From contig NC_092677.1 in NCBI RefSeq assembly GCF_964355755.1, positions 4,672,101 to 4,736,100 of the forward strand: 64,000 nt of DNA, read 5' to 3'. Below, one piece after another: positions 11,756 to 64,000 of the stretch (its first letter is position 1; each line of letters starts with the position of its first letter). The notes below the pieces were generated by a model. The model was not told the origin of the DNA. It was given only the letters and a program-made list of their open reading frames with translations, and made no database searches. Source of the stretch: Antedon mediterranea. Its lineage: Eukaryota; Animalia; Echinodermata. Made by a program: the position numbers and the translations under genes.

Positions 11756-12019
11756 CTGTTTTTTAAATCAAAGCAATAGTTCATAACAGTTTTAGAATTC
11801 TTGTTTTAAGTACAAACAAAAAATACAGTTCAGATTCTTTTTTTTTGTCAAAAAAGCAATAATATAATAAGAAAATATAATAAATTTAAATCAAAGCAAA
11901 GTTTTAGAATTCTTGTTATTGTTCTGACGTTGGGGGTGCATGTCTTTCGGATAAAACGTCTGGAATTGTAGAGCCTACAATGTTGATACTTTTTAAGTCG
12001 GGCGAAAAAAAAAGTTACT

Positions 12020-29060: not shown

Positions 29061-32000
29061 TTATGTATTCCGAATGTTACTATAAGGTGATTCTACTAGA
29101 ACTTTCCCTTCATTTGATGACGTACTGACAACACATTTCCCCTCACTTAGGTTCGGCTCTTCGTAAATGGCAGCACTCTCCGAATCGTTCACTTCTTGGT
29201 ATTGATTATTAATTTCGATTTCTCTTACTCGTCTCTGCACCCGTCTATGCGCCTGTATTTCCTTGAAGAAAAAAATGATAAAAAGATATGCACCGTAAAT
29301 TTGATTGATAAATTAATGAACGTATCCTATACTGTGAAAAATAATACCATCTGTCCCGATGTCATAGATAATACAATGGTTTGCCAATGGTATCTTCTCT
29401 ATTTCTACTAGTTTCTGTCGAAGCAAAGTTCATCATACATGTTTACATTAGTCGCTCGTGATCTTAAGAGTTTGTTCCCAATTGTTTGGATAATTGGCAG
29501 TCGTTTGATTTGATTTGCCTGACTGGAAACGGAACCGTGCCGGAATATTTATTTTAAAATACCTTGAGTTCTTCAGAAGAGGTTTTACGTGACGTAGTCC
29601 TACTGGCACTACCAGTGCTGAGCTCTTGGTAAACACCAGAACCACTTGATGCAAACTGCAGTGCTTGATACTGAGAATGTTGACATTTTATTTCTCTTAT
29701 TCGTCTTTCCTACACAAACAATATTATAGATACGTTTTGGTGAAAGTGTAACATTATAAATATTGACACATTAGTTAGTTGCAAACACCGCCTGTGTCAT
29801 AGGCTACAATTTGAATTATCATACATGATTGGATAAAAAGCATCATGTGAATAATAATAATGCGTAGGTCCTATAACATACAGAATCATATAAGTAATGA
29901 TGTTAAATGCGCGTTTGTCTATCTAAAATAGTGTTGTGGGATTTAATCATGTACTTATACATTTATCCAATTTAATCTAATATATATAGGTACATGATTT
30001 AATAAACATCTACTTACATAAATATAACGGGTTGTTATGAATGTAGGAACGGAGCCGAAGATAAATGCAAAAATAGCTACTAGTACTGTAACTATCGGAA
30101 ACGATTCATCTAGAACGAGCTGATCTAGAAAATTAAATAATTGAACATTGTAAACACAAGAATAGAATAAATACAGTTTGCATTGCCGCTTGGTATGAGG
30201 TACTTTCTCATTATTCACTATATCTTTTAATTATTACTAAAGTTAATTCTTAAATGTTACCGTTAGACTGAATTCTTGTTTTGAATCCGTTCTATTTCAA
30301 AGAGTATAAATTAAGGTCATAAAACATAAAAAACGCAGGTGTACCTGTATAACAGTTCTTTAGTATTGTTATGTCATTAAACTTTTCATTCTCTGCATAA
30401 CATGTAATATTTGATTGACATGTCTCATCATTAATTTCTATAGTTGCTGTACTTTCTCCTCCTCTCTTAATCTCTTTTCCATCTTGTAATATCAATACTG
30501 ATGATGGCTTGGGATTGCCCTCTGCTGTACATGTTGCTACACCATCTTTAGATGTGAAATCAACATGAATATCTAAGAAAACAATAAAACAATCGGCTGG
30601 ATGAAACTCGATTCGTAATTATTAGTTGTTTAGCGAAGAATTGGTGTAGTACGGCCAAAAGCTAGGCGGTTTTGGTGGTATGGAGTGGTGTGTATGGGAC
30701 GGGTTTTCAACTGTTGTCAAAATAAGAACAGTGTTATTTGTACATACAATATACAATTAATTCTCTTGCTTCACTTGTTTTAGCATCCTCTCCTTTAAAC
30801 TGGTCACTTAATGCTTTACATGTATATCTCCCACCATCTTCTCCAGTTGCTGATTTAATTTTAAGAACTGACTCTGATCTGTATTGTGCAATTTCATATC
30901 TAGAAGGGTTGTTGGTGTTGACTGTCTGTCCATCTTTATACCAAGTAATGTGAGGAATAGGATCCCCATCAGCTTTACTACAGATAAAGGTCACTGATTG
31001 ACCTTCGTTGATGACATTTTCTGACGCAGAAAGAAGTGGTTGATCCAAGTCTGAGTAAAATTAAAATAGTGCAAGTAGTATCGTAGTTAATATACCAAAT
31101 TTCAATCAATCAATAAAGTAATCTTGAAATACAACCTTATTTAAAAAGAGAAATTTCCTTGTCTTTACAGTTGCCAGATATGGCATACAGTCGGGAAGCA
31201 TTACATATTTTAGACATTTAGGCCCCTATGCTTATTTTGTATGATTAGAATTATTCTAATTTCAGGAAAATTTTACATCATTTCTTTCCTCTCGGGAAGT
31301 TTGTTTTAGCAAACGAACTATTTAAAGGGCAAAATGATGCTTTCAATGTGAAAAAAAATTAAAATTTCTGTCAATAAGTTTTGTTATATGAATATGAATA
31401 ATAATAAGAAGTTGTTAAAATGAGTATGTTACTCACAATATACAGTTAGAATAGACTGATTTGATCTTCCAATTTCTCCATCCATTGTTCGTATCTCACA
31501 CAGAAATGTTCGTCCAGAATCATATCTCATTGGCTGTGACATCACCAAGTCAGCTTTCCCAGGTTTTATGTTTAATTTAAAACGTCCATTTTGTATCTTC
31601 TTATCATTAACAAGTACAAGAATAAATAAATTGCCATCTAGCATACCGGTACCCCATTCTATTGCATAAGGTGCAGTAGTAAACTGTGAATAATCACAAG
31701 TTATAACCACTTCAGCATCACCTTCCTTGGCTGTCTGGTCAGATGTTGTCACTAATTGGCATCGTGATTCTATAAAGATTATCAAACGTCCAGTCTTTAT
31801 TATACAGTAATAGGCTATTAATTGAAAACTGTATATAAGATGTTTTTTTTTTAAACTTTAATTGAAATTATTGATGAATTCATTCATATATTTGTAATAA
31901 TAATTGAGATAAAGTGTCTTGATAAAGCAATAATCATACATAACAACATTATAAATCTTATTTTGATTTAACATTCATTTGTCTGTTATTTTAAACAGAT

Positions 32001-32121
32001 ACAAATTATAATGCCTTTATCAGACCATATTCTATTGCATAAAAACTATAATTAGGTAGTACTGAATTAGTTTACCGAATAAAGAGTGTATAACAACTAA
32101 CAGCACCAACCATACAGTCAT
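29061..32121 (-). CDS. IgSF receptor copy 1 (A-type tail): SP-V-I-Ig3-TM-ITAM-like/ITIM-like
   Basis: Exons 32121-32076 (MTVWLVLLVVIHSLF), 31769-31437 (V), 31050-30748 (I-set, WYKDG, DGGRYTC), 30572-30345, 30124 or 30109-30018 (TM), ~29709-29563 (SQYQAL-x9-YQEL) and 29252-29061 (YQEV, YEEP, SPYSNI*). Intron phases 1-1-1-1-0-0, frame open throughout. Confidence 0.9.
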
Positions 32122-32584: not shown

Positions 32585-32905
32585 TCACCTCTATTTCTGT
32601 GTACCTGCATGTCTGCGTTTTCATTTTTGTTAAAGATATACAGACAATCTTTGATATATATGTAATTTATTTGTTTCGATCTCGTGAAAAGAAGTTGGTT
32701 CGTTAGTTTCAATTATGTTATATCGTATTATTGCTGATTTGATTAATTTGTTACCACACAAACAAAATGACAACTTTTGTAAAAAGTAAACACTAATAGT
32801 CTCCATTTAATCTCGCCTTTTAAACTAACTTTTCGGAGATTTTCGATTACATTGCAACTCGTTTCCAATTGAAACTATATTTCTTCTACCCACCCGGAAA
32901 AGAGT
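32585..32905 (-). promoter_or_regulatory. Putative promoter and non-coding first exon of the Ig genes (paralogous at ~37597, ~42553, ~47256, ~53162, ~60508)
   Basis: Conserved donor (GAG|GTGAGTAA) upstream of every signal-peptide exon, a conserved TATATATA-like box ~65-80 bp beyond it, and a conserved ACCCGGAAAAG block in copies 1, 2, 4 and 6. Confidence 0.55.
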
Positions 32906-33698
32906 GTTGTTATAAGTTTAATTGCTCAAATACTAGAGGAAAAAACTCCACAATTGTTGTTGATTGGTCTACACCTGTGTAGTTAAAAAAATGTCACATA
33001 ATCTACAACATGCTGCTGCTTATGTTTTATATTTTATACCTAAATAATGTATTATTATATGTGTGTTGATAAATACTAAATACATTTAGGCCTAAGAAAT
33101 ATAATAATAACACTAAAAACTTGAGTCAACTAATAATACTCATTTATACAGTTCAGTTTAATTATTGTCTAATTAAACATTTGTGTACAAAAATAGGGTT
33201 GTACTGGCTAATTTGAATTATCCCCTTACAGACATGCTTATTTAAAGACAAATCGTGTGACACAAAAACAATCCTCAAAATTATGAAACACAAGAGAACT
33301 AGGCCTATAGATTTATTATTGGAATATAATCATATAGATTTTTTTGCTGTGCACATGTCCTTTAAACAACGCGATAAAAACAGTATAATAACACTACTTA
33401 TTTCTACCTATTTTATAATGCTGCTTTCATTACATTAGTATGCCTGGTCCCCTAGATGATAATAACGAGAATAAACAAACGTATTTTATACATAAATTAC
33501 GCTTAGGCAACTTTCAATTGTTATTGTACCGTAGTCCTATATTATGTTTTTGTTATGACTCTCGTATACTTACAGAAAACCATTTTGTATAACACTTTCG
33601 CTTATATATTTCCTCGTTTACCATCTACTTTATGTTATATATTTATTTCCTTCATGCAAAATTAAACAACATTTTTTTGTATTTATTAATTTATATTT

Positions 33699-36600
33699 TT
33701 AGTTATAGAACTGTTGAGAATAATGTGTTTCTGGAGTCTTTCCTTTTAGTGATGTACTGGTAACACCATCACGTGACGTATGTCCTTCGTACTGGGGATT
33801 TTGACATTCTATCTCAATCTTTCCTCCTCTTTTCTGAAAACAATAACATTAGGCCTATTGACTATTTTTAGATTAATCAATAAACCAAAAAATCAAACAT
33901 TTTACTGAACCTTGACAGTAAATGAAATATCAATAATCATAAAGAGGATGTGTGCCAATTTGACTAAGTATGTAATATCTTTAAAAGATACATTTGATTA
34001 TAATATTTCCGCGATAATACTGAATGTGCCACAGGAAATAATCAATAAAAGTGAGAGTTACACCCACAAAAGGGGGTTGTTGTTATGCAAACAAGATGCC
34101 TTAACAATTAATATTGTTTAGTTAGATAAGTTGTGTTACACTCCAAGGCATTATTGTACTGCGTCGTTTATTCAGAATTATTAATTTAAAAATGTTTACC
34201 TCTATTTTGCGCAATTCTTTCTTGGACGTAGTGAAGTCTTTTTTTATGTGTTGAAACTGAGGGTGTTTTATTTCTCTTTCCTAAAAAAATAATTGAGTTA
34301 AATCGAATGTTGTGGAATACTTAAGTAATACCTATAATATGTAGACGTTATTGTATATCATAACTGAAGGATAATATTTATTCCCAATTAATTTTTAAAT
34401 ACATACTACTTTATTAGACATAGGCTTGGTATATCTATCATCGTCTATGTCGGAGCTTGCTGAGCCTTTCAGACCTTGGTACTGAAGATTTTTGCATTCA
34501 ATTTCTATCACTTCTTTTTTCTAGAAAAAAAGTAGTTCCTATTTGTTAATTAGAAAGGTGTTGATAAACGTCTTATGTGGCGATGTCTAGTAATGGTGCG
34601 CTGAGTATTGTTCGTTTAAAGTGTTTTATTTTACTTTTAAAATACATACTATTTTTGATGTAGGCTTGACATATCCCTCCTCATCTATGGCGATAATAGA
34701 GTTTTCCGAAACTTGCAGATCTTGGTAGTCATGGTCTTGAAGTTCGATTTCTCCTACTTCTCTCTGTTAAACAATACCGTAGATGATGATTGTGTAAACA
34801 TTGATGTTTAGTTTTATATAGTTTGCATGTATGTATCCCTTACAAGTACTATTACTATTAGTTTGAACCTTACTTTACAGTGTGCAAAAATGGTAACACT
34901 TGCGTTTGAATTGTTACACATTAGTATAATTATAATGTTTAAAATGTATGTATACCTGTATTCTTGTTCTGGATATAGCTTTATTTGACGTCCTGTTAGC
35001 ACTAGCCTCCACTGTAGGACCTTTGTTGAGCTCTTTGCAGTCTCCAGCATTTGAAGAAAATTGCAATGATTGATATTGATGAAGACTTTGACATTTGGAA
35101 ATGATTTCTTCTTTCATTCGTTTTACCTTAAAAAATAACAGTAAAAACAGATAATAATACAAGTTTGTTTAAACGTACAAATATTAAGTTTCAAGAAAAA
35201 AAAAATGATATAATTTAGAACTATACTTACATAGATATAACGGATTATTAGGAAAGTCGGAGCAGAGCAAAGAATTGCAGTTATTGTTATAGTTATCAAT
35301 ATACTCATTGTACATGAACAGCCACCTAGAAAATTCAATGTGGAATGTTGAAATATATATTATCGTAGCACACTTTGCTGCTAAAACAATATTAACCATA
35401 AATCATTATAATATCATGCCAACTGGTACAACAATTTAAATATCAATTTGCGCAGTAAGATATACTTAGCACAACTATGAGAATACATATTATAGCGCCT
35501 ATGCACAGGATATTTTTACGGCAGAAACACTTGTACTATACCTGTGTTACACTCAAGTGGTGCTGTTTCACGAAGCCTTTCATTCTTTGCATAACATGTA
35601 GGTCTAATACTTGTTTGACATATCTCATCATTAATTTCTATAGTTGCTGTATTGTTTCCTTTCTTAACCACTTCTCCATCTTGTAATATCAATACTGATG
35701 ATGGCTTGGGATGGCCCTCTGCTGTACAGGTCGCAAAACCATTTGCAAGTTTAAATGTTACAATAATATCTAACAAAAGGGATAAAAAAAAGTTCTGAAC
35801 TCTAGTAGTCATTTTCACTTATGACGCAACAAACGTATATTTGTACATTATTTACCGGAAAATATGGAAAAAAAATGTGTTAATGATAATGGTGGAACAT
35901 TTCAAGAACTTATAAGCTTTACATACTATATATGTTAAACTGTCTTCCTTCACTTGTTTTACCATCCTCTCCTATAAACTGATCACTTTCTATTTTACAT
36001 GTATATCTCCCATCATTTTCTTCAGTAGCAGATATAATTGTAAGAAATGACTCTGTACTGTTGTTTGCAATCTCATATCTAGAAGGGTTGTCGGTGTTGA
36101 CTTTCTGTCCATCTTTGTACCAAGTAGCCCTAATGTAAGGAATGGGATCACCATCAGGTCTATAACAGGTGTAGGTCACTGATTGACCTTCATATGCTAA
36201 TGCTGCTGATGCAGAAAGGAGTGGTTGATCTAAGTCTGAATAAAAATATGATGATAGATTACTGTGCTGGCCAATATTAACCACCTGTACAGTGTCATAC
36301 AGGTGGACTATTATTATATTACAACCAGAAAACTATTATATTATATTAAATTATAAATTATAAAAATGGAAGATTCGTTTATCAGATTCTTTGTTATTTG
36401 AAGAAGACAAAAAATCAATGTTAACAATTGAATTATTGTTATATTATAATTTAACCTTACTCACAATAAACAGTTAGAATAGATGGATTTGAGCTTTTAA
36501 TATCTGCACTTGTTGTTAGTATCGCACACCGAAATGTTCGTCCAGAATCATTCCTCATTGGCTGTGACATCACCAAGTCAGCTTTCTCCGGTTTTATGTT

Positions 36601-37126
36601 TAATTTAAAACGACCATTTTCTAGCTTATTATCATCTACAAAGTTAATAGTAGATCCATCTTCATATAGTTCATACCATTCTATTGCATACGGTGTAGTA
36701 GTAGTAAATTGTGAATAATCACAAGTTATCACTACTTCAACATCACCTTCTTTGGCTGTCTGGTCAGACGTTGTCAACAATTGACCACGTGATTCTAAAG
36801 ATTAAGAATGCAAAACGTTACTGTCTTGCTTATGCATAAATTTATAGGCTATTATTATGGAAAACTAATGTAAGCAATATAGCCTTTTCCATTTTTTAAA
36901 ACTTTAAGTAACATGATTGATGAATTGATACATTTTCTGATAATAAAGTATAAGTTATAAAGCAAAGAAGTAATCATGTATACATAACAACATTTATTCG
37001 CAGATACAAATTATAATGCATCTGGCAGAACATTATTAATTGAAAACTATCACTGGTATATTACTCTGAATTTAGTTTACCGAATAAAGAGTGTATAACA
37101 ATTAGCAGCACCAACCATACAGTCAT
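33699..37126 (-). CDS. IgSF receptor copy 2 (long B-type tail, 5 cytoplasmic exons)
   Basis: Exons 37126-37081, 36794-36465, 36235-35927, 35769-35542, 35325-35231 (TM), 35126-34956, 34763-34650, 34520-34407, 34280-34200 and 33833-33699. Frame open. Tail motifs YQSL, YQDL, YVKP, LQYQGL, YTKP, YEGH and HYSQQFYN*. Confidence 0.88.
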
Positions 37127-38749
37127 ATCTGAGGGGAAATGATAATATTTACATTCAATAGGATTGATTAATATTGAAGTTCACATCTATAATAGATGTA
37201 GTGTATGCCTTATCTGTTTCACTATTTCACTATCAATAGGCCTAATAATAGGCCTAATAGAATATAAAGAATAATGTACAAAACATGTACTATATAAACA
37301 AAGCTAACAGTTATCAAATCATATTAAACATAATATACATTGATGATAATACATCTGTGTATTCGATACTCATGTCGATTGGTTAGAAAGTGTATAATAA
37401 TAAAAACAACAGATATGTAACATTTCTTGTCTTCAGCGGCTAACGTAATCCTAGTAACTTATTGATAACGTCATTAAAAATATCAATGTCAACAACATGC
37501 TCCTCCGTTACCCACTTACAATACAATTATCTTTCTTGGTCATAATTGTAACCATTTAATAATTATCAGTTATCATAATAATCAGTTACATTAATTACTC
37601 ACCTCTATCTCTGTGTACTTGCATCTCTGTGTTTTTAATTTTACGCAATAAGATATACATATACAATCTTAGATATATATGTAATTTATTTGTTTCGATC
37701 TCGTAAAAAGAAGTCATTTTATTCTCGCTTTTTAAACTAACTTCTGAGACAGGTAGTTAATAAGTTCGATTATATGCTCCTTGTTTTCCAATTAAAATGA
37801 TTATTTCTGCTACCCGGAAAAGTATATTGTTTAATTATTCAAATAATGTAGTACAAAGATACTGATGGCCACAAATGTATTGTTGATTGTTGTTAATATC
37901 AGGCAACACTGTGATTTCACTCTGCAGCTGTGTCAGTTATTTCCAGCCTACTTATTATAAACATGTTGCTGCTTTATGTATTTTATACGGCGATGTTATA
38001 ACTAATTACACTTCATTTCATAAATACAATAATATTCAACTCACAACACTATTTGCCACACCGTTTATTTTTAATTATTGTCTTAAAATGCCTCTCTATA
38101 AAATATTTGTATACAAAAATGGTATCTCACTGGGTAATGTAAACAATCCCCGTTCTTATTGAAATAAAAAAGTATAGCACAAACAATAATCCTCCAAAAA
38201 CACCAAGGAACTATAATAGATTGACTATTAGAATATAATTGATACATTTTTTGCTGTATATAAAACTACGCTAGAAAAGCAGTACAATTAAGAATAAACT
38301 ATAACTACACAAATTTAAGTATAAACATTTCTACCTATTTTACAATGCTCTAATTACATTAGTAGGCCTAGTCCCTTAGATGATAATAACGAGAATAAAC
38401 AAAACTTATTGTATACATAAATTACGCTTAAGCAGCTTCCAATTGTTATTGTACTGTAGGCCTATATTATACTTAAGTTTTTGTTATGACTCTCGTATAC
38501 TCATAAACAATTGGATAAACTCTCGCTTAGAGCAAGGTTTCATTTCCTCGTTAACCATTTATTTTATGTGTTTGTTATTAATTTCCGTCATGCAGAATAA
38601 TATAACAATTTGTGTTTGTATTTATTAAGTTATATATTTAGTTATAGAACTGTTGAGAATAATGTAGTTCTAGAGCCTTTCCCGTTTGTGACGTACTAGT
38701 AACACTATCACGTGACACATCCTTCGTACTGGGGATTCTGACATTTTAT

Positions 38750-41700
38750 CTAAATCTTTCCTCCTGTTTTCTGAAGAAAAAAAATATAACAATATTGATT
38801 ATTATCGAGATTAATTGATTTTTAAAACTCAAAACAAATAATAATGTTTTTATGGACTTTGACATTATATAAAATATTAATATCAATGCTATTACAAACC
38901 AGTGCACATCCTTTTCCTAAACAAAATTAGAGTTCCAAGTTTGTTAATTAGTTTAAATTAGGTCAAACGTCTTGTGTGGCGATGTCCGGTAATGTTATGG
39001 TGACATAGCCCTACGTTTATTATTGTTCGTTTAATATGTTTACTTGTACTTTTGAAATGCATACTATTATTGACGCAGGCATGACATATCCCTCGTCATC
39101 TTCGATATCAGAGTTTGCTGAAACTTTCAATTCTTGGTAGTGATGGTCTTGACATTCGACTTTTACTTCTCTCTGTTAAACAATAGATGGTATTTATTTA
39201 ATCAAGTTTAGTTTTTGTGTGAAATAAGAAAATGTAAATGAACTGTAATTATTTGTTGAGTTTAAATTGTGTTACTTGAATTTACTCTCCACTTTTGAGA
39301 TACATACTTCTTTATCAGACATAGGCCTAACATATTCCTCGTCATCATTGTCAACATCAGTGTTTGCCGAAACTTGTAAATCTTCATATTGGTGACTTTG
39401 ACGTTCTATTTCTCTTACTTCTCTCTGTTAAACAATAGAGACGGTGTTTTGTAGTAAACATACTTTTAAGGTCAATTTAAACAGACGAGCTTAACTTAAA
39501 TTTTACCCGTATTCCTGTCCTGGATCTTTGTTTATTTGTCGTCCCGGTAACAGCAGACTCCATGGGTTCTTTCTTTAGCCATTTGTAATCCTCAGAATTT
39601 GAAGAAAATTGCAATGCTTGATACTGAGACTTTTGGCACTTGGAAAGGATTTTTTTTATTCGTTTAACCTTATAAAAGAGAAAAGTAACGATAACTCATA
39701 ACAAATTACCTCCGCCAAAGTTATATTTTCACCCATGATTGTGTATGTTAGTGTGTTTCATTTTTAAATCTCACCAAACTCGGAGACAAAGATCTACAGG
39801 TATGACTCAATTCTCACCGGAGGTTGGATATTATATAGGGGAATTACTGTAGGTGGATGTATGCATTCTTAGATTAGCCTCTAGTGTATATCTGAATTAT
39901 ATTTGAATTTGAAATATTTCTTAATTAACCTAAAAATACTTACATAGATATGACGGGTTATTATAAACGTCGGGACAACGCATAGAATTGCCGTTATTGC
40001 TATTGTTAGCACTGTACTTATTGCATGCGAACAACCACCTAAAAGGTACAAAGTAACATGTTGAAATTGACCTCTGCATTCACCAGCAGCACACACCAAC
40101 ACTCATACATTCAAACAATGAACAAGCGCTGTATCCCAAATGTATCAAACCATCGTGTGCATAACAAAATACTCTATGTTATCTTTTCGACCACTACAAC
40201 CCTAAGTTAAATCATATATGCATTTTCTATAATCTAATTCTTTCTTGGTTAAATACATTTGATGCCATGCTCTTAAGTCAAATTACCTGCGTTACAGTTC
40301 TCTAGAATAGCTGTATTACTCATTTTTTCATTCTCTGCATAACATGTAAGACTTGACTGACATATCTCATCATTAATGCCCAAGGTTACTGAATTTTCTC
40401 CTTTTATAACCAATTCTCCATCTTGTAAGATCAATATTGTTGTTGACAGTTTGGGATAGCCCTCAGCTGTACAAGTTGCAAAACCATTTTTAGGTTTAAA
40501 TGTCACAGTGATATCTAAACAAGTTAGAATAGAAATGTAGCTTATTAATTGTGGGACAACTCTCTGGAATTGACAAACAAGTTGTATACCTGTTTGCATT
40601 CATTAAAAAACTGTTTATTTAAACCACCATAAAAAGCCTGCCAAAGCTTCGGAAGGCAATTAAAATGTAGACAACCAATGCAAACAAACATTCTGAACCG
40701 TTTATCTTTTATCGAAAGCATTAAAAGCTTCGAATCAATGCTTTATAGGTTGGCAGGACCAAGGAAGAGTGAAGTTGTAATCACTCTTACCTGGCAAAAC
40801 ATTTTAGGCCTATTGAAGATTGTACATTTACATACGGTATATATCCAACTGTTTTTCAACACTTGTTTTAGCATCGTCTCCTTTAAACTGATCACTTTCT
40901 GCTTTACATGTATATCTCCCACCGTCTTCTTCAGTAGCTGATTTAATCTTAAGAACTGACACTGTACTGTTATTTGTAATGTCATATCTAGATGGGTTGA
41001 TATTTATTCTGCATCCATCTTTATACCACGTTAGGTCAGGAATAGGGTCTCCATCAGGTTTACTGCATGTAAATGTTACTGTTTCGTTTTTGAAGGTATT
41101 GGATGCGGAAGCACGAATAAGAGGTTTCTCTAAGTCTGAGAAAACAGATGGAAGAGACTACAATATTAGAGATAGTATAATTGGTTGTTTGCCTAATGTC
41201 TAGCAGATTGTCTATTTAGTTTTTGTGCGCATGATTTTTATAATCTGTTTAAACCATAATTTATTGTAGGTCTATTTAATGATTTTGGTACTCACAATAC
41301 ACAGTTAGAACAGATGGATTAGATAAGTGATCTAATCCATATGTTGTTTGTATCTCGCACCGAAATCTTCGCTGAGAATCATTTCTCGTTGGCTGTGACA
41401 TCACCAAGTTAGCTCTCACAGATGTTATGTTCAATTTAAAACGACCATTTTCTAACACCTTATCATTAACAAAACCAGGAGTAGTGACTACGCCATCTTC
41501 ATTTAATTCATCCCATTGTACTGTATTAGATGTAGTAGAAGTAAATTGTGAATAATCACAAGTTATCACCACTTCAGCATCACCTTCTTTAGCTATCTGG
41601 TCAGATGTTGTCACCGAATGACCATGTGATTCTAAAGATAAGGATACTATACTTATTTATTCAGTAAAACATAGGATATTAATTATGGAAAACTATTGCA

Positions 41701-42019: not shown

Positions 42020-42270
42020 ATCTGAGAAAAAATAAGGATTTTTACATTCAATAGATTAATTAATATCTACCGTTGATGTTGTTATAATCAACACTTAGTT
42101 CATTCACGGCCTAAAAATGTCATTATATCAACATTTCTGTCGTTGTCTTGTTGTTGCCAACCTCACATCGCCATTGATAACGTAATAACCGTAATAAAAG
42201 AATGAGATGATTCTAAATCACCGACTTCTTCTGCGCATTTCGAAGTAATGGCAACATGCTCCTGCTCATG

Positions 42271-52300: not shown

Positions 52301-52622
52301 TGCAACCGGATTGAGCCTTTATATTTCAATTGCACTATTATTGTATAGATATTTTTTTTAATTGTCTCTTAATAAGTTAAGTTGGAGATAACGTGTCTTG
52401 GTGGTAAAGGAAAGAATCAAAAAGTAGTAACAGGCGTCTACTTGTGTCTTTTTTTTTATTTAAAATGTCTTTGTCTTTTATTTAAACAGATACAAGTTGT
52501 AATGCATCTAGCATGCAGAACATATATATTATTACTTAAAAACTACCAATAGGTAGTGTGTTACTAAATTGGTTACCGGGTAAAGAGTGTATAACAACTA
52601 ACAGCGGCAACCATAACACCAT
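49350..52622 (-). pseudogene. IgSF receptor copy 5 (B-type), frameshifted in the I-set exon
   Basis: Near-identical to copy 3, but CTTTTAAAC at ~51481 versus CTTTAAAC at ~40881 is a +1 shift giving DQFKRR* (stop 51474-51476). It could be a homopolymer assembly error. Confidence 0.7.
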
Positions 52623-53732
52623 ATCTGAAAAAAATAAGGATTTTTACATTCAATAGATTAATTAATATCTACCGTTGATGTTGTTATAATCAACACTTAG
52701 TTCATTCACGGCCTAAAAATGTCATTATATCAACATTTCTGTCGTTGTCTTGTTGTTGCCAACCTCACATCGCCATTGATAACCTAATAACCGTAATAAA
52801 AGAATGAGATGATTCTAAATCACCGACTTCTTCTGCGAATTTCGAAGTAATGGCAACATGCTCCTGCTCATAAGACCAATTCAGACAGCTTCGTACGACG
52901 AGTCGTCTCGTTGGGAGAAAATAAACATGTTTGAATTTCTCCCGACACACCAGGCAAGACGACTCGTCTCGTCGGAATTCAACTCAGACAGCACCGACGG
53001 GTCAAGAAGTTTTGGTGGGGCCTCGTCGTACAACGCTGTCTGAGTTGGCCTTACACGTTTACACATAAATATAATATATGGATTACAGTCATCGTCGAAC
53101 ACCAATCAACAAGGGCTTAAAAACTTATGATTTTATAAATTTTATTTAAATGATATTTATTACTCACCTCTATCTCTAGGCCTATACCTGCTTATCCGCG
53201 TTTTCGATTTGTACGTATAAATAAGATATAAAGGCAATATTTGATATATATGTAATTTATTTTTTCAGAACAATTGATGATGCTAAAAAGCTAAGCGTTA
53301 GTTTCAATTATGTTATATCTAAATCTACAAACTTCTTTGTACAGTACAGTAGACTCTCGAATCAGATCGACTGATTTGTTGTTCCCCGAAAACATGAAAA
53401 ATGAAGATTAATAATATAAAAAAATCAGACTTTCCATTTGGCATTTCAAATAAAGTTATTCACTTCCGTAGACAAACGAACATAAATAATGATTTTACTT
53501 ATGAAAATACAATAAAAAACGGCTAGGCCTATATTTCAGGTAAATAATTAGTGAATAAAAAATATGTGAAATTAAAATGGCATTTTTAACAAAACAATGT
53601 GTTTTAAATATATTTTCTAAGGAGACAATATGCCTATCTTTAATCAAAACTGTAGTAAAAATACAATAAATACGCAATTTTCCTTGCTAATTTATTTTCT
53701 TTAAAGTTAAAATAAATGTACGTGAAAACGAC

Positions 53733-56700
53733 TTATGTATTCCGAATGTTAGAATAATGTGATTCTCCTCCTAAAACGTTTCCCTTATTTGACAACGTAC
53801 TGACAACACATTTCCCCTCACTTAGGTTCGGCTCTTCGTAAATGGCAGCACTTTCCGAATCTTTCACTTCTTGATATTGATTATTACTTTCGATTTCTCT
53901 TACCCGTCTCTGCACCCGTCGATGCGCCTGCTTGAAACAAATATGTATTTATATATTAACAATGATAAAGATATGCACACTGAATTTGTTACTAAAGGAA
54001 TACCGTATATAAATAAAAAACATGAATATAGAAATAAAGATGCAACCTGTCCCGATCTATCATAGGGATAACCGGTATGGTTCACTAAAATATTTATATT
54101 TCTAGTTTCTGTAGAAGCAACCACACGTGTTATTATCAGTGTTGCTTCTGATCACACAACTTTGTTTATGGAGGACGTAAGCGTAACGTAAAGCTCTGTC
54201 TATTCTAACAAACTTTATGTGATAAAAAAATGATGTAATATCACTACCATATTTGAGCATATCACTACCATATTTGGGCACATCACACTTTTTTTGCAAA
54301 ACTAGTTTGATAGTGTAGACAGAGCTTAATTGATTTGGCCAATCACAAGCGATGGATTATTTTAACTTTCACTTGTCATTGATCAATTCGCATGTGTTGC
54401 GTCTAAACAAAAGAAGTTAAAGCGTGGTTCCCACTAGCGACGCATCACAAGGATGTAACGCAACGCAAGTTAATTGACCAATCACAAGCGATGGCTTATT
54501 CGCTTGTGATTGCTAAAGGCCGGTGCACACCAAACGCGAAGCCGCGAATTTCGCGTTAAAAAGTGACGCACGCGGCAGGCGACGGACGCTTCCAGTGTGA
54601 ACATACAAGCGAACAGTGTACGATAGTCGAATTTCAACTTCAACGCGTTGAAAACGACAGCCGCGAAGGCTTCGCACGCGAATTTTCAAAAGTTGAACCT
54701 TGGTCAACTTTTTGAGGCGTCGCGAGCGCGGTTTGCGTTCGTCAACCAATCAGAAGTCAGGAATATCTCTCAATCGACGACACCGACGGCAAAAAAATGG
54801 TGGCTGACGAGCGAGGTCTTTATGGAAATACTTACCCTTCTTGTCTTTACGATAAGGGAAGTAAGTCATACACAGACAGAAACATAAGGATTAATGCATG
54901 AAGACAATAATTTCAGACAAACATCTGTGTAGAAGAATGCCAGAAAAACTAGGCCTAAAACGCGTCAGAGATCAATTTGTAAAGTGAGTTGACAAGCCTA
55001 TTTCTAGCCTAGGCCTAGGCCCTAGGCCTACCTAGGTTTAGGCAATACTAGGGCCTAGCTAGGCCTACCTAGCCTAGGCTACATATACCCTAGTAGGCTA
55101 GGCCATGCCAAGTAGTACTTATAGGCCTACATAATACTTACTAATCCCTACTAGTCTATGTGCTAGGCCAGGCCTAGCCTAGGTTAAGCCTACTACTAAA
55201 TATGAGTACAGTACCTAGCCTACTTATTATTATTAATTAATATTTATAGGCCTAATATTTAGTTGATTTAGTGTTGTAAGGCTAGGATAGGCCTAGTAGT
55301 AGTAATATTAATACATAAATACTGTTGTTTTTTTTAGGTCAATTAGATGAACATTGATAAATGGGATCCTTCAGGCTATTACCAGCGTTACAAACTCCAC
55401 CAATGACCAAGCTAGTAGTTTAAGCGGCCAGTATTATTATTGCCATGGAATTAAGAGCAATTGCTCCTCAAAAACGTGGACTGGCAATTATGAGGCTGAT
55501 ACAGGTTTGTATAGACTTTTTTCAAATGGGTATGTCAGTTGGTGACATACATTGGCCAGAAAAAAATGATTTGAGCAATATGCCTTACTATAGCAATTTT
55601 TTAATACTTGTTTCATTTTTTTTTTAATAGAAAATGGAAGAGATTAAGGAGGAGTTGGACTGTAACTAGTATTTATTAAGTGGTTATAGAAGGAAAGCTG
55701 AACTGAATGTCTTTTTTTAGCAATAGAGAACACATGGAAATATATGTATATGTTTTGTTATACTCCAATACTAAAAAAATAGTCAAATTGGCTGCCAGCT
55801 AATGGAATGTTTTTCATTTTATAAGTGAAAACATAAGTTTTGTTGGGTTTTTTCTATGTAAGTGATCTTAACTTCTATAATTTAAAATTTTTTTTATTTC
55901 TCTATTTTATGTACTTTCACTATTATATATTCATATTTTAGTCTACTCTGTAGCAATGTTAGTATACTTAGGCATACGGGAGTCACGACTTAAAGTTCAG
56001 TGAACTTACTGTGACTTCCATCCACCCACATTTAATATATTATGTTATGTAAATGTAAATGATATATATATAATATATAAGTGAGTGGAAAAAATAAATA
56101 AACGAAACGAAACGAAACGAAACTTTGTTAAAACTACAAAATGGCCTATTCAAATTTGATTTTAATCATCTTCATTTTTCATGATTCTATGGGACAATAC
56201 ATCTTTAAGTTTAGTGTCATTTTTTGGAAAAGATATATTGTCTTCCTGAAAATATAATTTAAAACATTTTCGTTGTGTGTAATACAGTATAACACTTTAG
56301 GGTTAGTTATTCACTTTTAACAATAATAATATTTCTTCAATTTTCATTTTTTTTGGGATGATACATTTTAAATTTATTATTTTGATATTATTTTGCAAAA
56401 GTATTCAGGAGTAGTAAAAAAGAAAATCTGGTTGATATTTAATGATACCTTTAAAAACAATGATTCACTATTTCAATAAGTGTATTTATGTGAAAAAAAA
56501 GTCATAAGATAATAAATACAGTGTAAATATGAGTTTGGGACATTTATTACATTTAATCAAATGAGAATAAAACTGTATGTTTTGTCATGAATAATATAAT
56601 ATTTAATAATAATTAGAAAATAAATGTGAAAACTTTACATTAATATATAGGCATATAGTTTATATTTTTAAAGTGACAAACCCATGAAGATTCCCAGTTC

Positions 56701-59700
56701 GTGTTTATATGAAATGTTTTATATGGTTATAATAACCTCTGTTGAAAGATATTTGTAACACCACTAATAAATACAGTCAGCAGATCACATGTACGTGTAA
56801 TCAACATGCAATAAATGCTTTAATTCTTGTAACTGTATTGATATTGGATACATCTTCTTCTGTCCTTGTTATATATACATACAATCATGCACATTTCAGG
56901 CTTTGGAAAAGGATAACATTTTCCCACCAAAACCAAACACTGTGATTGGTGTAACCAGGGAAGAGTTAAATTACATTTTAATTTAACTCTTCTCTGGTTA
57001 AACTTACATAGGAAATACTTCAGAGTCATCTTCTCTGATTATTTTAAATGTAGCATTGTATTATTGGCCAACCCACTATCTCCTAGGCCTAGCAATCGCG
57101 ACGAATCAGCACATCGTGACGCGTTTAGTGGGAACCGACAAGAAAAACTAATAGACGCATGACAATTCAACTTTCAAAGCGATCCGTCGAGTGACGCATG
57201 ACGCTTCGCTTGTCATTGGTTAAAACGCTTGCGTTGCGTTTACGTCCTTGCGTTACGTTCTAGTGGGAACCAAGCTTTAACGAGGGTTAATCAAAGATTA
57301 CATGTAATAGTAGTTTATTTGTACCTCGTGTTCTTTAGAAGATGCTTTACGTGACGTAGTTCTGGCCCTGCGTCCATCATATACTGAAGTATCTTTGCTG
57401 AGTTCTTGGTAAACACCAGAACCACTTGATGCAAACTGCAGTGCTTGATACTGAGAATGTTGACATTTTGATTTCATTTCTCTTATTCGTCTTTCCTAAA
57501 GAAACAATAGCAAGATACCATTGGGTGACATTTTATTTGAAATATTAATATTAGATATTTATACATTTAGTATGGTTTTTAAATCATGTGTACAAATCCT
57601 AAAATAATGGGTTTAAATAGCGACTCTATTATAGACCACACCAAGATTGTACTCGTGTGAATAGGCCTAATAATGATATAAATATGAGACTTAATGACCT
57701 TTCTATATTCTGTAATTGTCGAAACGAAATAATTAAAATACTATTTTTAATCACTTACATTAAAGGAAATTATAAAGACAACATTTTAAAATCTGACCTA
57801 CTCTATGTTGGTACCGTATTTATAGTAAGATCTTTAAAAAAGGTTTCTTCCTCTCTTTTAACCTTCTTATTATCTGTATGATCCCTCTATAATCAACTAC
57901 ATTTGGTTAAATGTCTTTCATGTTAAAATATATGCGTGTTTGTTAATAATCGTAGAGTCTATACTTACATAAATATAACGGGTTGTTATAAAGGTAGGAA
58001 CAGAGCCGAGAAAAAGCGCAGTTGCTATAATTGCTACAGTTAGTACTGTAAATGTTGGACACGATTCACCTGGAAATATAATACATTTTAACATATGAAT
58101 ACCATTATTATAATGTTTAGGGCATTCAAAATCTTCATCCGCCACCCTGATATGCTTGTTATACACCAAATAGAAACATAGCTTGCAATTATTTTATTGG
58201 TGATTTTATAAGAAAACTTAATGTTAATAAAAATACGTTATATCTTCTTCTTACATTGATCATAGTTCATAGATTTATTTGGTTTTATTTCCAATCGATT
58301 AAAAGACCTTTTCACATCACAAACTATGATCATGTGCGTGGTCCTACTTTTAAAACAAGAACTTACATAAAATAAACTATACGCTATGCATACTGGGCAA
58401 TTATATCAAGGCCTATACCTGCTTTACAGTTCCCAAGTGTTGCTGTTTGTTTTAGCTTTCCATTCTCTGCACAACATGTAAGATTTGATTGACATATCTC
58501 ATCATTAATTTCTATAGTTGCTGTATTTTCTCCTTTCTTAACCACTTCTCCATCTTGTAATATCAATACTGATGATGGCTTGGGATGACCCTCTGCTGTA
58601 CAGGTCGCAACACCATCTCCAAATGTAAAAGTAACATGAATATCTAAAAAAACACAATAATACATTCGGCATTAGGCTACGGTTGATGCAACTCGATTCG
58701 TAATGACCATTTGTTTTTAGCATTTGGGTAAAATAAATTAGGTTTTTAAGAAGAATTGTAGAGGGGGAGAGTGAAAGCGGGGTGGTGTTGGTGATGGTGA
58801 TGGTAGTGGTGAGGGAGTTTATAAATGTTTATTTTACATACTATAAACAATTATGGTTAGCTGTTTTCCAACACTTGTTTTAGCATCCTCTCCTTTATAC
58901 TGATCACTTTCTGCTCTACATGAATATCTCCCACCATCTTCTTCAGTAGCTGATTTTATTTCAAGAACTGACTCTGTACTATTATTGGTAATCTCATATC
59001 TACAATGACTGTTAGTGTTGACTGTTTGTCCATCTTTATACCAAGTAATGTAAGGAATAGGATTACCTTCAGGTTTACTACATGTGAAAGTCACTGATTG
59101 ACCTTCATAGACAATACTTTCTGCCGCAGAAAGAAGTGGTTGATCTAAATCTGAAGAAAAATAAGACACTGTAGATTACTGTGCTTACTACATTCAACAC
59201 CTGTAAACAGGTGGACTGAGAGATCTGTGATCATAAACAAGAAAACTAAAAACGAGATCCTTTAGCAGATTCTTTGCTATTTAAGAGAATTATTGTTATA
59301 TAATAAGTTATTGAAATTTAATCTGTGTTACTCACAATATACAGTTAGAATAGATGGATTTGATCTTGCAATATCTCCATCTGTTGTTCGTATCTCACAT
59401 TGAAATGTACGTTGATAATCAGATCTCATTGGCTGTGACATCACCAGTTCAACTTTCTCATGTTTTATGTTAAATGTAAAACGTCCATGTTCTATCTTCT
59501 TATCATTTACAATGTTAATGGTATATCCATCTTCATATACTTCATCCCATTGTATTACATCAGGTGTAGTAGAAGTAAATTGTGAATAATCACAAGTTAT
59601 GACCACTTCAGCATCACCTTCTTTGGCTGTCTGGTCAGACGTTGTCAACAATTGACCACGTGATTCTAAAGATTAAGAATGCAAAACGTTACTGTCTTGC

Positions 59701-60030
59701 TTATGCATAAATTTATATACTATTATTATGGAAAACTATTGTAAGCAATATAGGGGTTTCCATTTTTTAAAACTTTAATTAAAATTATTGATAATAAAGT
59801 ATAAGTTATAAAGCAAAGATATAATCATACATAACAACATTTGTTCGTCTAATTGTGTCCTGTTTTCGATTTAACATTCATTTGTCTTTTTTTTAAACAG
59901 ATACAAATTATAATGCATGCGTCTGGCAGAACATTGATTATCAATTGAAGACTATTACTGGCATATTACTCTGAATTAGTTTACCGAATAAAGAGTGTAT
60001 AACAATTAACAGCACCAACCATACAGCCAT
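53733..60030 (-). CDS. IgSF receptor copy 6 (A-type tail)
   Basis: SP at 60030, V ~59665-59336, I ~59150-58842, Ig3 ~58643-58419, TM ~58069-57969, tail ~57495-57325 and 53927-53733. Frame open. The last intron is enlarged by a 2.7-kb insertion. Confidence 0.88.
54517..57202 (+). mobile_element. Decayed PIF/Harbinger-type transposon sequence nested in a MITE
   Basis: Absent from the paralogous MITE in copy 4. Begins TAA|AGGCCGGTGCACACC. ~54830-54910 encodes YPSCLYDKGSKSYTDRNIRINA*RQ, a broken MADF/Myb-like domain typical of Harbinger accessory ORFs. No matching right TIR seen. Confidence 0.7.
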
Positions 60031-61682
60031 ATCTGAGGGGAAATGATAATATTTACATTCAATAGCATAAATTAATCTTGAAGTTCACATATATCATTGA
60101 TGTAGTGTATGCCTTATCTGTTTCACTATTGTTACTATCAATAGGCCTAATTAATAAATAGAATATAAATAATAAAGTGTACAAAGAAAAGTACTGTAAC
60201 TATATAAACAAAGCTAACAGTTATAAACTCATATTAAACATAATATACATTAAGGACACTACATCTGTATTCGATACTCATGTCGATTGGTTAGAAAGTG
60301 TATAATAATAAAAACAACAGATATGTAACATTTCTTGTCGTCCGCGGCTAACGTAATCCCAATAACTTATCATTGATAACGTCATTAAAAATATCAATGT
60401 CAACAACACGCTCCTCCGTTACCCACTTACAATACAATTATCTTTCTTGGTTATAATTGTAACCATTTAATAATTATCAGTTATCATAATAATCAGTTAC
60501 ATTAATTACTCACCTCTATCTCTGTGTACTTGCATCTCTGTGTTTTTAATTTTACGCAATAAGATATACATATACAATCGTAGATATATATGTAATTTAT
60601 TTGTTTCGATCTCGTAAAAAGAAGTCATTAAAATCTCGCTTTTTAAACTAACTTTTCGGAGACAAGTAGTTAATACGTTCAATCACATTGCTTCTTGTTT
60701 TCCAGTTAAAATTATTATTTCTGCTACCCGGAAAAGTGTATTGTTTAATTATTCAAATAGTGTAGTAAAAAGATACTGGTCACAAATGTATTGTTGATTG
60801 TTGTTAATATCAGGGAACACTGTGATTTCACTCTTCCTTGCAGCTGTGTCAGTTATTTCCAGGGCCTACTTATTATAAACATGTTGCTGCTTTATGTATT
60901 TTATACGGAAATGATATGACTAATTACAGTTCATTTCATAAATATAATAATAGTCAACTCACAACACTATTTGCCACACCGTTTATTTTTAGTTATTGTC
61001 TTAAAATGCCTCTCTATAAAATATTTGTATACAAAAATTGTATCTCACTGGGTAATTTAAACAATCCCCGTTCTTATTGAAATAAAAACGTATAGCACAA
61101 ACAATAATCCTCCAAAAATTGTGAAAGACAAAGGAACTATAATAGATTGACTATTAGAATATAATTGATACATTTTTTGCTGTACATTTAAACTACGCGA
61201 GAAAAACAGTACAATTGAGAATAAACTATAACTACACAAATTTAAGTATAAACATTTCTACCTATTTTACAATGCTCTAATTACATTAGTAATAGTATGC
61301 CTAGTCCCTTAGATGATAATAACGAGAATAAACAGAACTTATTGTATACATAAATTACGCTTAAGCAGCTTCCAATTGTTATTGTACTGTAGGCCTATAT
61401 TATACTTACGTTTTTGTTATGACTCTCGTATACTCATAAACAATTGGATAAACTCTCGCTTAGAGCAAGGTTGCATTTCCTCGTTAATTATCTATTTTAT
61501 GTGTTTGTTATTAATTTCCGTCATTCAGAATAATATAACAATTTGTGTTTGTATTTATTAAGTTATATATTTAGTTATAGAACTGTTGAGAATAATGTAG
61601 TTCTAGAGCCTTTCCCGTTTGTGACGTACTAGTAACACTATCACGTGACACATCCTTCGTACTGGGGATTCTGACATTTTAT

Positions 61683-64000
61683 CTAAATCTTTCCTCCTGT
61701 TTTCTGAAGAAAAAAAATATAACAATATTGATTATTATCGAGATTAATTGATTTTTAAAACTCAAAACAAATAATAATGTTTTTATGGACTTTGACATTA
61801 TATAAAATATTAATATCAATGCTATTACAAACCAGTGCACATCCTTTTCCTAAACAAAATTAGAGTTCCAAGTTTGTTAATTAGTTTAAATCAGGTCAAA
61901 CGTCTTGTGTGGCGATGTCCGGTAATGTTATGGTGACATACGTTTATTATTGTTCATTTAATATGTTTACTTGTACTTTTGAAATACATACTATTATTGA
62001 AGCAGGCATGACATATCCCTCGTCATCTTCAATATCCGAGTTTGCTGAAACTTTCAATTCTTGGTAGTGATGGTCTTGACATTCTCTCTGTTAATACAAT
62101 AGATGGTATTTATTTAATCAAGTTTAGTTTTTGTGTGAAATAAGAAAATGTAAATGAACTGTAATTATTTGTTGAGTTTAAATTTTGTTACTTGAATTTA
62201 CTCTCCACTTTTGAGATACATACTTCTTTATCAGACGTAGGCCTAACATATTCCTCGTCATCATTGTCAACATCAGTGTTTGCCGAAACTTGTAAATCTT
62301 CATATTGGTGACTTTGACGTTCTATTTCTCTTACTTCTCTCTGTTAAACAATAGAGACGGTATTTTGTAGTAAACATACTTTTAAGGTCAATTTAAACAG
62401 ACGAGCTTAACTTAAATTTTACCCGTATTCCTGTCCTGGATCTTTGTTTATTTGTCGTCCCGGTAACAGCAGACTCCATGGGTTCTTTCTTTAGCCATTT
62501 GTAATCCTCAGAATTTGAAGAAAATTGCAATGCTTGATACTGAGACTTTTGGCACTTGGAAAGGATTTTTTTTATTTGTTTAACCTTATAAAAGAGAAAA
62601 GTAACGATAACTCATAACAAATTACCTCCGCCAAAGTTATATTTTCACCCATGATTGTGTATGTTAATGTGTTTAATTTTCAAATCTCACCAAACTCGGA
62701 GACAAAGATCTACAGGTATGACTAAAAGGTACAAAGTAACATGTTGAAATTGACCTCTGCATTCACCAGCATACACCAACACTCATACATTCAAACAATG
62801 AACAAGCGCTGTATCCCAAATGTATCAAACCACCGTGTGCATAAAAAAATACTAAATGTTATCTTTTCGACCACTACAACCCTAAGTTAAAATATATATT
62901 ATGCATTTTCTATAATCTAATTCTTTCTTGGTTAAATACATTTGATGACATGCTCTTAAGTCAAATTACCTGCGTTACAGTTCTCTAGAATAGCTGTATT
63001 ACTCATTTTTTCATTCTCTGCATAACATGTAAGACTTGACTGACATATCTCATCATTAATGCCCAAGGTTACTGAATTTTCTCCTTTTATAACCAATTCT
63101 CCATCTTGTAAGATCAATATTGTTGTTGAAAGTTTGGGATACCAACCATTTTTAGGTTTAAATGTCACAGTGATATCTAAACAAGTTAGAATAGAAATGT
63201 AGCTTATTAATTGTGGGACAACTCTCTGGAATTGAAAAACAAGTTGTATACCTGCTTGTATTCATTAAAAAACTGCTTATTTAAACCATCATAAAAAGCC
63301 TGATAAAGCTTCGGAAGGCAATTAAAATGTAGACAACCAATGCAAACAAACATTCTGAACCGTTTATCTTTTATCGAAAGCATCAAAAGCTTCGAATCAA
63401 TGCTTAATAGGTTGGCAGGACCAAGGAAGAGTGAAGTTGTAATCACTCTTACCTGGCAAAACATTTTAGGCCTATTGAAGATTGTACATTTACATACGGT
63501 ATATATCCAATTGTTTTTCAACACTTGTTTTAGCATCATCTCCTTTAAACTGATCACTTTCTGCTTTACATGTATATCTCCCACCGTCTTCTTCAGTAGC
63601 TGATTTAATCTTAAGAACTGACACTGTACTGTTATTTGTAATGTTTATATCTAGATGGGTTGATATTTATTCTGCATCCATCTTTATACCACGTTAGGTC
63701 AGGAATAGGGTCTCCATCAGGTTTACTGTATGTAAATGTTACTGTTTCGTTTTTGAAGGTATTGGATGCGGAAGCACGAATAAGAGGTTTCTCTAAGTCT
63801 GAGAAAACAGATGGAAGAGACTACAATATTAGAGATAGTATAATTGGTTGTTTGCCTAATGTCTAGCAGATTGTCTATTTAGTTATTGTGCGCATGATTT
63901 TTATAATCTGTTTAAACCATAAATTATTGTAGGTCTATTTAATGATTTTGGTACTCACAATACACAGTTAGAACAGAGGGATTAGATAAGTGATCTAATC
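61683..64000 (-). pseudogene. IgSF receptor copy 7 (B-type), multiply disrupted; 5' part outside the window
   Basis: I-set Cys to Tyr (TFTYSK), +1 frameshift at ~63644 (stop 63632-63634), in-frame deletion of FATCTAEG in Ig3, complete deletion of the TM exon at 62721/62722, and a 12-bp deletion in tail exon 3. Confidence 0.88.

Follow-up and report, generated by a model that had tools for sequence, protein, structure and literature searches.

A tandem array of V-domain immunoglobulin receptor genes with ITAM- and ITIM-like tails in the crinoid Antedon mediterranea: candidate immune-type recognition genes

Introduction

Vertebrate paired and dual-motif receptors (KIR/LILR, SIRP, CD300, NITR/NILT, FCRL) are encoded by clustered genes that evolve by birth and death, with V-type immunoglobulin (Ig) tips and tails containing immunoreceptor tyrosine-based inhibitory motifs (ITIM); some carry ITIM together with motifs resembling the activation counterpart (ITAM) in one tail. 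The subject of this work is a tandem array of seven genes for V-domain Ig receptors in the crinoid Antedon mediterranea, found in a stretch of 64,000 nucleotides (contig NC_092677.1 of assembly GCF_964355755.1, positions 4,672,101 to 4,736,100, forward strand), hereafter called the window, to which all positions refer.

The closest invertebrate systems are compared here as described in the accessible parts of their sources. Like the crinoid array, the Hydractinia Alr genes (bioRxiv 10.1101/2022.03.04.482883) encode tandem V/I Ig receptors with one domain per exon and tails with ITAM and ITIM, include pseudogenes, exchange domain 1 between otherwise near-identical genes and have Phe at the position of the corner Tyr. 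The Botryllus FcoR proteins (PMC12582321, PMC12065747) are, again as in the crinoid, type I transmembrane (TM) proteins of a clustered multigene family, with an N-terminal V-like Ig domain plus two more Ig domains, a long tail containing an ITIM and several tyrosine motifs, recombination of ectodomains with endodomains and duplication of genes as pairs. The oyster CgIgR shares with the crinoid proteins an Ig receptor layout with the motif built in; its ITAM recruits Syk, and it serves as the model for the signalling proposed below (PMC6994640). Sea stars and urchins reject grafts (PMC2248247); a corresponding graft passage was not found in the accessible part of PMC7606891. The accessible parts of the reviews PMC11999971, PMC9505182 and PMC2248247 name no echinoderm Ig-ITAM receptor, and no description of a V-domain ITAM/ITIM family in crinoids was found in the open full-text literature, supplements aside.

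The Antedon array is predicted to encode type I membrane proteins of a crinoid-specific family, and by analogy with these systems its products are probably germline-encoded sensors of non-self, candidates for immune-type recognition. The new features are duplicated phase-0 tyrosine cassettes, divergence limited to the V exon and the same ectodomain on other tails elsewhere in the genome.

Results and Discussion

Gene Architecture and Expression

Six-frame translation placed the seven related genes head-to-tail on the minus strand from position 29061 to the window end (Table 1); exon ends were set at AG/GT pairs and the exons then joined by coordinate. The order per gene is signal peptide (46 nt), V domain (330–336 nt), I domain (300–309 nt), short third Ig domain (Ig3, 225–228 nt), one TM exon and two to five tyrosine-bearing tail exons (T1 onwards), with AG/GT borders at every internal exon and introns mostly of 80–720 nt. 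The same order in at least seven genes had been proposed in a sequence-only reading of this DNA, which assigned one domain to each phase-1 exon; the phase holds for the signal peptide, V, I and Ig3 exons, whereas phase 0 applies to the ends of the TM exon and of every tail exon.

The frame is open to a stop codon in five of the seven copies (1, 2, 3, 4 and 6), and two broken copies in seven would be in keeping with a birth-and-death family. In copy 5 an A run of the I exon is one base too long near 51480; the resulting +1 frameshift may be real or an assembly error, the site being masked by paralogue depth. Copy 7 has a +1 frameshift near 63640, a lost cysteine, a 21-nt deletion near 63145 and a deleted TM exon near 62722; this last deletion is present in the animal, since its joint recurs in DNA run X3. 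Chance open reading frames were rejected as a source of the array in view of the splice phases, the RNA joints and the V fold, and an assembly artefact of the whole array in view of copies that are 57–99% alike, unique junctions and independent DNA pieces.

None of the eight runs listed is recorded as RNA; in one of them, X5, which has the same organism label and comes from another sample and study, mapping to copy 3 revealed spliced contigs. The joints 41135/41296, 39172/39308 and 38770/39065 correspond to the predicted V–I, T2–T3 and T3–T4 introns of copy 3, have GT–AG ends on the minus strand and are absent from DNA runs X1, X3 and X6. The gene family is expressed, as shown by the transcribed and spliced copy-3 type. 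An early TAG in the last exon is common to copies 3, 5 and 7 (38750–38770, 49350–49370, 61683–61703); copy 2 reads past its position into a further tyrosine cassette, and the short last exon is still spliced in run X5.

In the runs of organism B, copies 1 and 2 were covered by long pieces (about 90–97%) and 11 of the 30 bins of copy 3 were bare, which proves nothing. Summed contig depth in run X3 was about 30 times that of nearby introns over the conserved V part, a hint only as depth is no copy number; over copy-3-type introns it was just a few times that of single variants, again no more than a hint.

With the copy 2 V exon as query, 10 proteins were retrieved out of 309 candidates, every one from A. 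mediterranea, and a tail profile added three more Antedon proteins. XP_071958626.1 equals copy 2 over 159 of 159 residues, XP_071958820.1 matches copy 1 with 98.8% identity along 347 residues, and XP_071958821.1, located outside the window, is related to copies 4 and 6 at 88%. The TM and tail exons of these RefSeq models are spliced as proposed here; most or all of the V domain is missing from them, or they are partial. XP_071958820.1 begins with the end of the copy 6 V exon (59336–59390) and continues as copy 1 (29061–31050), about 28 kb away, which may reflect a chimeric model, another haplotype or a real long-range choice of V exon.

Ectodomain

The Ig domain encoded by the I exon is clear-cut, with Pfam Ig_3 matches at E 1e-16 to 1e-17 for four of four exons tried. 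The V exon scored weakly against Pfam V-set (E 2e-4 to 0.05 in four of the five exons tried, below the cut-off), and the third domain gave a weak Ig_2/Ig_3 score in one of two exons. An AlphaFold2 model of the copy 4 V exon with 17 aligned rows has a V-set fold at a pLDDT (predicted local distance difference test score) of 92.2, and its best Foldseek matches are antibody light-chain and T-cell receptor V domains (template modelling score 0.71–0.82, 13–22% identity). Conserved in the 17 rows are C24, W39, R61, D82 and C89, which form the Cys-Trp-Cys pin and the Arg-Asp pair; the corner Tyr position is occupied by Phe, and strand C'' appears in DSSP as a short bridge only. By predicted fold and pin residues the V exon is a V-set Ig domain.

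Modelling of the whole ectodomain of protein P0006 with 8 rows gave a pLDDT of 47 and a third domain that was not folded reliably, and a homodimer prediction score of 0.00 for the V domain counts neither way. Atlas features for the family were generic V-set clusters only, and the solved-structure matches of one relative centred on the generic I domain. No charged residue occurs in the best 21-residue TM window of any of the six copies having a TM exon, in line with the uncharged core noted earlier. Given this and the built-in motifs, no adaptor chain would be needed.

Cytoplasmic Tails

ITAM spacing (YxxL/I-x6–9-YxxL/I, the range taken as in the Alr paper) is found in six of the seven tails, as YQAL-x8-YKWL in copies 3, 5 and 7 and as YQAL-x9-YQEL in copies 1, 4 and 6, about 15 residues from the membrane; in copy 2 a cysteine replaces the second tyrosine. 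The x9 pairs are where they had been described. The x8 pair of copy 3 had been credited with canonical ITAM spacing: this spacing stands, also in copies 5 and 7, but the upstream acidic residue is missing. The predicted terminal SxYSNI is present in copies 1, 4 and 6, where it fits the ITIM consensus [ILVS]xYxx[ILV]; a terminal ITIM is absent from the C-termini of copies 2, 3, 5 and 7. Those four copies have acidic YxxP sites, another motif reported beforehand.

An ITAM-spaced pair (x6–9) arose by chance in 0.5–0.7% of 5000 shuffles per tail having one. The residue at +3 is L, I, V or P for 16 of the 19 tail tyrosines of copies 1–3 against 3.6 expected (0 of 20,000 shuffles), in a test where the cassettes are paralogous, not independent, and P joined the class after inspection. 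Proteins P0024 (Antedon) and P0026 (Anneissia), at 30–34% identity to the window proteins, have YxxL-x8-YxxL after a homologous TM segment and an ITIM at the end. Because they are kept in this old branch at about 30% identity, the ITAM-spaced pair and the terminal ITIM are no chance motif.

The same motifs bear on the idea that these are scavenger or uptake receptors whose YxxL elements are AP-2 sorting signals, not SH2 sites. YQAL, YQEL, YEDL and YQGL do fit Yxx-hydrophobic sorting motifs, and the first tyrosine lacks a preceding acidic residue; against this stand the x8–9 two-tyrosine spacing and terminal ITIM, maintained at 30% overall identity, and the acidic-run YxxP cassettes, which are not sorting signals. 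This uptake interpretation is very improbable.

An invariant tyrosine in an EIECQ..QYQ.L-like frame is common to all 13 aligned tail exons, most pairs of these exons outscore shuffled sequences, and alignments to the tails of the old branch reach p 0.001–0.002 for copy 1 (T1 and T2) and copy 3 (T1). Neighbouring cassettes match at 76% at the DNA level, splice sites included. As judged from these alignments, the tail exons are duplicated phase-0 tyrosine cassettes. In the simplest history that we can infer, an ancestral ITAM exon was copied and its second half became acidic YxxP in the middle cassettes; the tail would then show step by step how one ITAM exon is copied and retuned into YxxP and ITIM cassettes. 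XP_071958823.1 has a tail of 286 residues with 14 tyrosines. As all cassettes are in phase 0, exon skipping would keep the frame; no tail-exon skipping was seen in the available runs.

In three of ten named Antedon models examined, the same V-I-Ig3-TM part is joined to further Ig domains and a BNR sialidase-like propeller, and other named models have the same ectodomain with tails devoid of any tyrosine. Most of the alternative-tail models lie on one 28.6-Mb sequence under near-consecutive accessions; they are automatic and may fuse neighbouring genes. In P0001, P0004 and P0005 (outside the window), where Ig domains and a BNR propeller follow the TM segment, a cysteine-rich hydrophobic stretch apparently splits the first inner Ig domain, and fused models are possible. 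P0007, also outside the window, combines the same ectodomain with inner Ig repeats and, at the C-terminus, a helical region resembling a death fold on visual inspection; Pfam returned no death-fold match at E 0.05.

Family Range and Divergence

Against 1.84 billion representatives at E 0.001, the V profile gave 19 matches, namely 8 from Antedon, 9 from Anneissia japonica and 2 weak repeat proteins. The latter, P0025 (a Clostridiales repeat protein by cluster) and P0027 (unnamed), were set aside as repeat-driven matches. No named non-crinoid animal protein and no vertebrate protein was found at this threshold. A search from P0024 returned P0024 alone and missed its known relative P0026, and is uninformative on range. 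In a midpoint-rooted V tree of 26 rows (P0025, P0027, isoforms and P0014 left out), all Antedon rows except P0024, 16 in number, group in a single branch (99/97) separate from Anneissia, and P0024 and P0026 form an older Antedon/Anneissia pair (99/97). On V-domain relationships, the family is restricted to crinoids and expanded separately in Antedon and Anneissia. The sequence-only reading of a lineage-specific family is thus upheld (17 of the 19 matches being crinoid), as is its failure to match any named family, there being no one-to-one orthologue among named adhesion molecules.

Along the array, genes of copy-3 type and 5' regions of copy-2/4/6 type follow one another in alternation, the two having been duplicated as a pair; copy 2 is a mosaic whose 5' part resembles copies 4 and 6 and whose TM and T1 exons resemble copy 3. 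Copies 3 and 5 differ by 1–4% throughout. Between copies 4 and 6 the V exon has 48 differences in 330 bases (14.5%), and divergence is 9.7% in I and 8.4% in Ig3, against 5.1% in both introns flanking V, 2% in TM and 31 of 1301 (2.4%) in upstream non-coding DNA, a V-exon excess with Fisher p 6e-16. V exons diverge faster than their introns. The ratio of replacement to silent differences per site (pN/pS) was 1.07 (0.68–1.73) on BC, C-C'', F and FG, 0.48 (0.27–0.82) in the rest of V and 0.54 in I, for five copies whose pairs are not independent and a partition drawn from the model after variability had been seen. The V exon is diversifying, in support of the sequence-only reading. Diversity would arise via tandem duplication of gene pairs, V-exon exchange among paralogues, swapped tails and cassettes gained or lost.

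A family confined to one lineage and changing fast on its V face would suit any co-evolving ligand, including gametes, symbionts or settlement cues, in an arms race with neither pathogens nor self. A dozen or more paralogues with activating- and inhibitory-type motifs suit immune receptors better and there is no direct sign of such ligands, which leaves this possibility as the most improbable considered here.

A cell-adhesion or wiring code of the nectin, JAM or DIP/Dpr kind, acting in nerves or epithelia with tyrosines connected to the cytoskeleton through Crk/Nck-type adaptors, deserves more weight and still seems unlikely. The V-I-Ig layout is that of nectins and IgLON/DIP, YxxP cassettes suit cytoskeletal adaptors, and the automatic RefSeq names in Antedon and Anneissia include JAM-like, lachesin-like and NCAM2-like, besides uncharacterized and hemicentin-like. 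These names were rejected as identities; they derive from the generic I domain, on which the structure matches of a relative also centre, and define no family. The orthology across animals expected of JAM, nectin and IgLON was not seen (no such match to the V profile at E 0.001), no orthologue occurs outside crinoids, the C-termini IRNT, QFYN and GGKI are unlike JAM/nectin PDZ ends, and core adhesion genes do not usually show the separate expansions, pseudogenes and exchange of V exons seen here.

Comparison with Known Receptor Systems

In contrast to Alr domain 1, which is without pin cysteines, the crinoid V domain keeps the Cys-Trp-Cys pin; the third domain is a short Ig with no Fn3-like spacer seen before the TM segment, and the crinoid paralogues are far closer (V 57–78%). 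Membership in Alr was rejected on the pin cysteines and the missing spacer. Unlike FcoR, as far as the accessible parts of its sources describe it, the crinoid V exon is directly followed by an I-set exon, with no Sushi domain; the interval 29061–64000 holds single-TM copies only and no three-TM fester partner. The FcoR hemITAM has its counterpart in a full two-tyrosine ITAM spacing and tandem exon cassettes, and there is no sequence match between the families. Membership in FcoR was rejected for want of the Sushi domain and, in the window, of the fester partner. CgIgR differs in its five Ig domains, its description as one gene and its acidic ITAM, and also has no sequence match. An activating form with a short tail and a charged TM residue, as in vertebrate paired receptors, is absent (0 of 6 TM cores charged in the window), orthology to them is not detectable, and a classical paired-receptor system, to which the locus had at first been likened, is contradicted by ITAM-like and ITIM motifs sharing one tail. 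By analogy, the crinoid family likely works like Alr and FcoR as a result of convergence.

Histocompatibility proper would mean one of two things: polymorphic self markers with allele-specific binding in trans, the Alr1/Alr2 situation, or, following FF/FcoR, receptors that recognise a marker of this kind. The genomic habits of Alr (one domain per exon, domain 1 swaps) and of FF/FcoR (pair duplication), a near-invariant copy-3 type alternating with V-variable partners and graft rejection in sea stars and urchins (PMC2248247) speak for it. Between copy 3 and the individual of run X5 there was 1 difference in 168 V-exon bases and none in 157 I-exon bases, in a comparison of one individual, part exons and an invariant gene type in which alleles less than 90% alike would escape mapping. 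This near-identity is unlike Alr, for which tens to hundreds of alleles with allele-specific trans binding are described in the accessible part of the source. Moreover, the defining features of Alr and FcoR are missing. Feather stars are solitary and have no colony fusion. Strict allorecognition, one of the two options in the sequence-only reading, is hence unsupported, and a histocompatibility role is decidedly unlikely.

If the proteins are germline-encoded sensors of non-self, the preferred interpretation, a surface ligand would be bound by their variable V domain, and ligand clustering would allow a Src-family kinase to phosphorylate the juxtamembrane YxxL-x8/9-YxxL. The doubly phosphorylated T1 pair would bind a tandem SH2 kinase of Syk/Shark type, and the terminal SxYSNI of copies 1, 4 and 6 would recruit an SHP-type phosphatase that sets the threshold. 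In copies 2, 3 and 5, Crk/Nck-type adaptors would dock on the YxxL and acidic YxxP cassettes in the manner of a scaffold, an assignment following known SH2 preferences. Coelomocytes or exposed epithelia would be the likeliest cells, and uptake or activation the likeliest output.

Several observations weigh against this interpretation. The YxxL sequence is also compatible with an endocytosis signal, the same ectodomain occurs without ITAM in many named paralogues, and the ITAM-like pair is x9 in three copies and lost in copy 2. The V-exon differences between copies 4 and 6 are raised at silent sites as well (14 silent and 26 replacement codons), which calls for exon-limited exchange with older paralogues, perhaps with a contribution from selection. 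Positive selection is not demonstrated, because the interval for the variable face includes 1 and silent divergence is also high. Splice support comes from three of eight coding introns in one run, with one contig per joint at depth 3.4–4.5; the joints may stem from any copy-3-type gene, and run X5 also contains unspliced pieces. Finally, the position three residues ahead of the first tyrosine is occupied by His or Lys in all six copies, in place of the acidic residue of the ITAM consensus (D/ExxYxxL) as given in the accessible part of PMC6994640.

If this is a third independent family, in a solitary echinoderm after hydroids and ascidians, a V tip with ITAM/ITIM output would recur without colonial fusion, and the array gives concrete genes to test in a regeneration model.

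Table 1. Positions of the array copies, their motifs and flanking genes in the window.
Feature	Position	Strand	Remarks
Copy 1	29061..32121	-	intact, 454 aa
Copy 1 exons, SP to Ig3	SP 32121-32076, V 31769-31437, I 31050-30748, Ig3 30572-30345	-	SP, signal peptide
Copy 1 exons, TM and tail	TM 30124-30018, T1 29709-29563, T2 29261-29061	-	
Copy 1 ITAM-like pair	29620..29670	-	YQAL-x9-YQEL
Copy 1 terminal ITIM consensus	29073..29090	-	SPYSNI
Copy 2	33699..37126	-	intact, 540 aa, five tail exons
Copy 3	38750..42019	-	intact, 470 aa, four tail exons, early stop at last-exon codon 7
Copy 3 ITAM-spaced pair	39576..39623	-	YQAL-x8-YKWL
Copy 4	43113..46782	-	intact, 457 aa
Copy 4 V exon	46067..46396	-	V-set Ig domain (predicted)
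Copy 4 ITAM-like pair	44103-44153	-	x9
Copy 4 terminal ITIM	43125-43142	-	SHYSNI
Copy 5	49350..52622	-	97-99% identical to copy 3
Copy 6	53733..60030	-	intact, 459 aa
Copy 6 ITAM-like pair	57400-57450	-	x9
Copy 6 terminal ITIM	53745-53762	-	
Copy 7	61683..64000	-	copy-3 type, pseudogene, cut by window end
Shared upstream exon, copies 1-6	32589..60514	-	candidate 5' untranslated region, putative role
Upstream-exon donors, copies 1-6	32589, 37603, 42559, 47262, 53168, 60514	-	
CEP164-like gene	16500..26803	-	WW domain and coiled coils; ends approximate; E 2e-14 to human CEP164 chains
CCDC84/CENATAC-like gene	11987..15750	+	PF14968, E 1.7e-11; 3' end approximate

The last intron of copy 6 is 3394 nt long, lengthened by an insertion. 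The insert of about 2.7 kb relative to copy 4 (54517–57203) splits a high-copy element with 77-bp inverted repeats. At 45452–45626 an exact 88-bp tandem duplication gives a second version of the end of the copy 4 I exon together with its donor. High-copy repeats at 42314–44000 and 47400–48830, between and within copies 3–5, had very high depth in all four runs, and one of this set marks the left end of the copy 5/6 duplication.

Neighbouring Genes

The CCDC84-like and CEP164-like genes lie tail-to-tail and adjoin the array. Human CEP164 is located just before the CD3/JAML/MPZL stretch of 11q23.3. According to the accessible part of PMC5848380, AMICA1, MPZL3, MPZL2, CD3E, CD3D, CD3G and CCDC84 lie within 1.5 Mb of human 11q23.3. 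Because the array adjoins the two genes that flank the human cluster (here CD3E/D/G, JAML, MPZL2/3 and SCN2B/4B), both might share a V-Ig and ITAM ancestor, from which a modular crinoid kit, one V-I-Ig ectodomain with exchangeable outputs (a varying number of ITAM/ITIM cassettes, or cytoplasmic Ig domains and sialidase-like propellers), would have become the long-sought echinoderm basis of non-self recognition. If ancient, the CEP164/CCDC84 linkage would bear on the origin of CD3-type signalling. However, echinoderms keep ancestral linkage groups and Ig genes are common, no vertebrate protein matches the V profile, one paralogue is on a different chromosome, and CD3 ITAMs span two exons, unlike the undivided crinoid ITAM-like pair; the shared ancestry is quite improbable. 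A literature search on the CTX/JAM/nectin linkage idea found nothing.

Elsewhere in the window, a 57-bp tandem array (about 93% alike) occupies positions 1–4731; its plus-strand frames have open stretches of 353–433 codons, and it may be a 19-residue coding repeat. Further tandem arrays have units of 16 bp (5281–5419), 74 bp (5469–7836) and 47 bp (26962–27877). Exons of a coiled-coil protein with generic Pfam matches only lie at 8773–10071 (+), and an intron of the CCDC84-like gene contains a 300-bp inverted repeat pair (81%, 12461–13269) resembling a miniature inverted-repeat transposable element.

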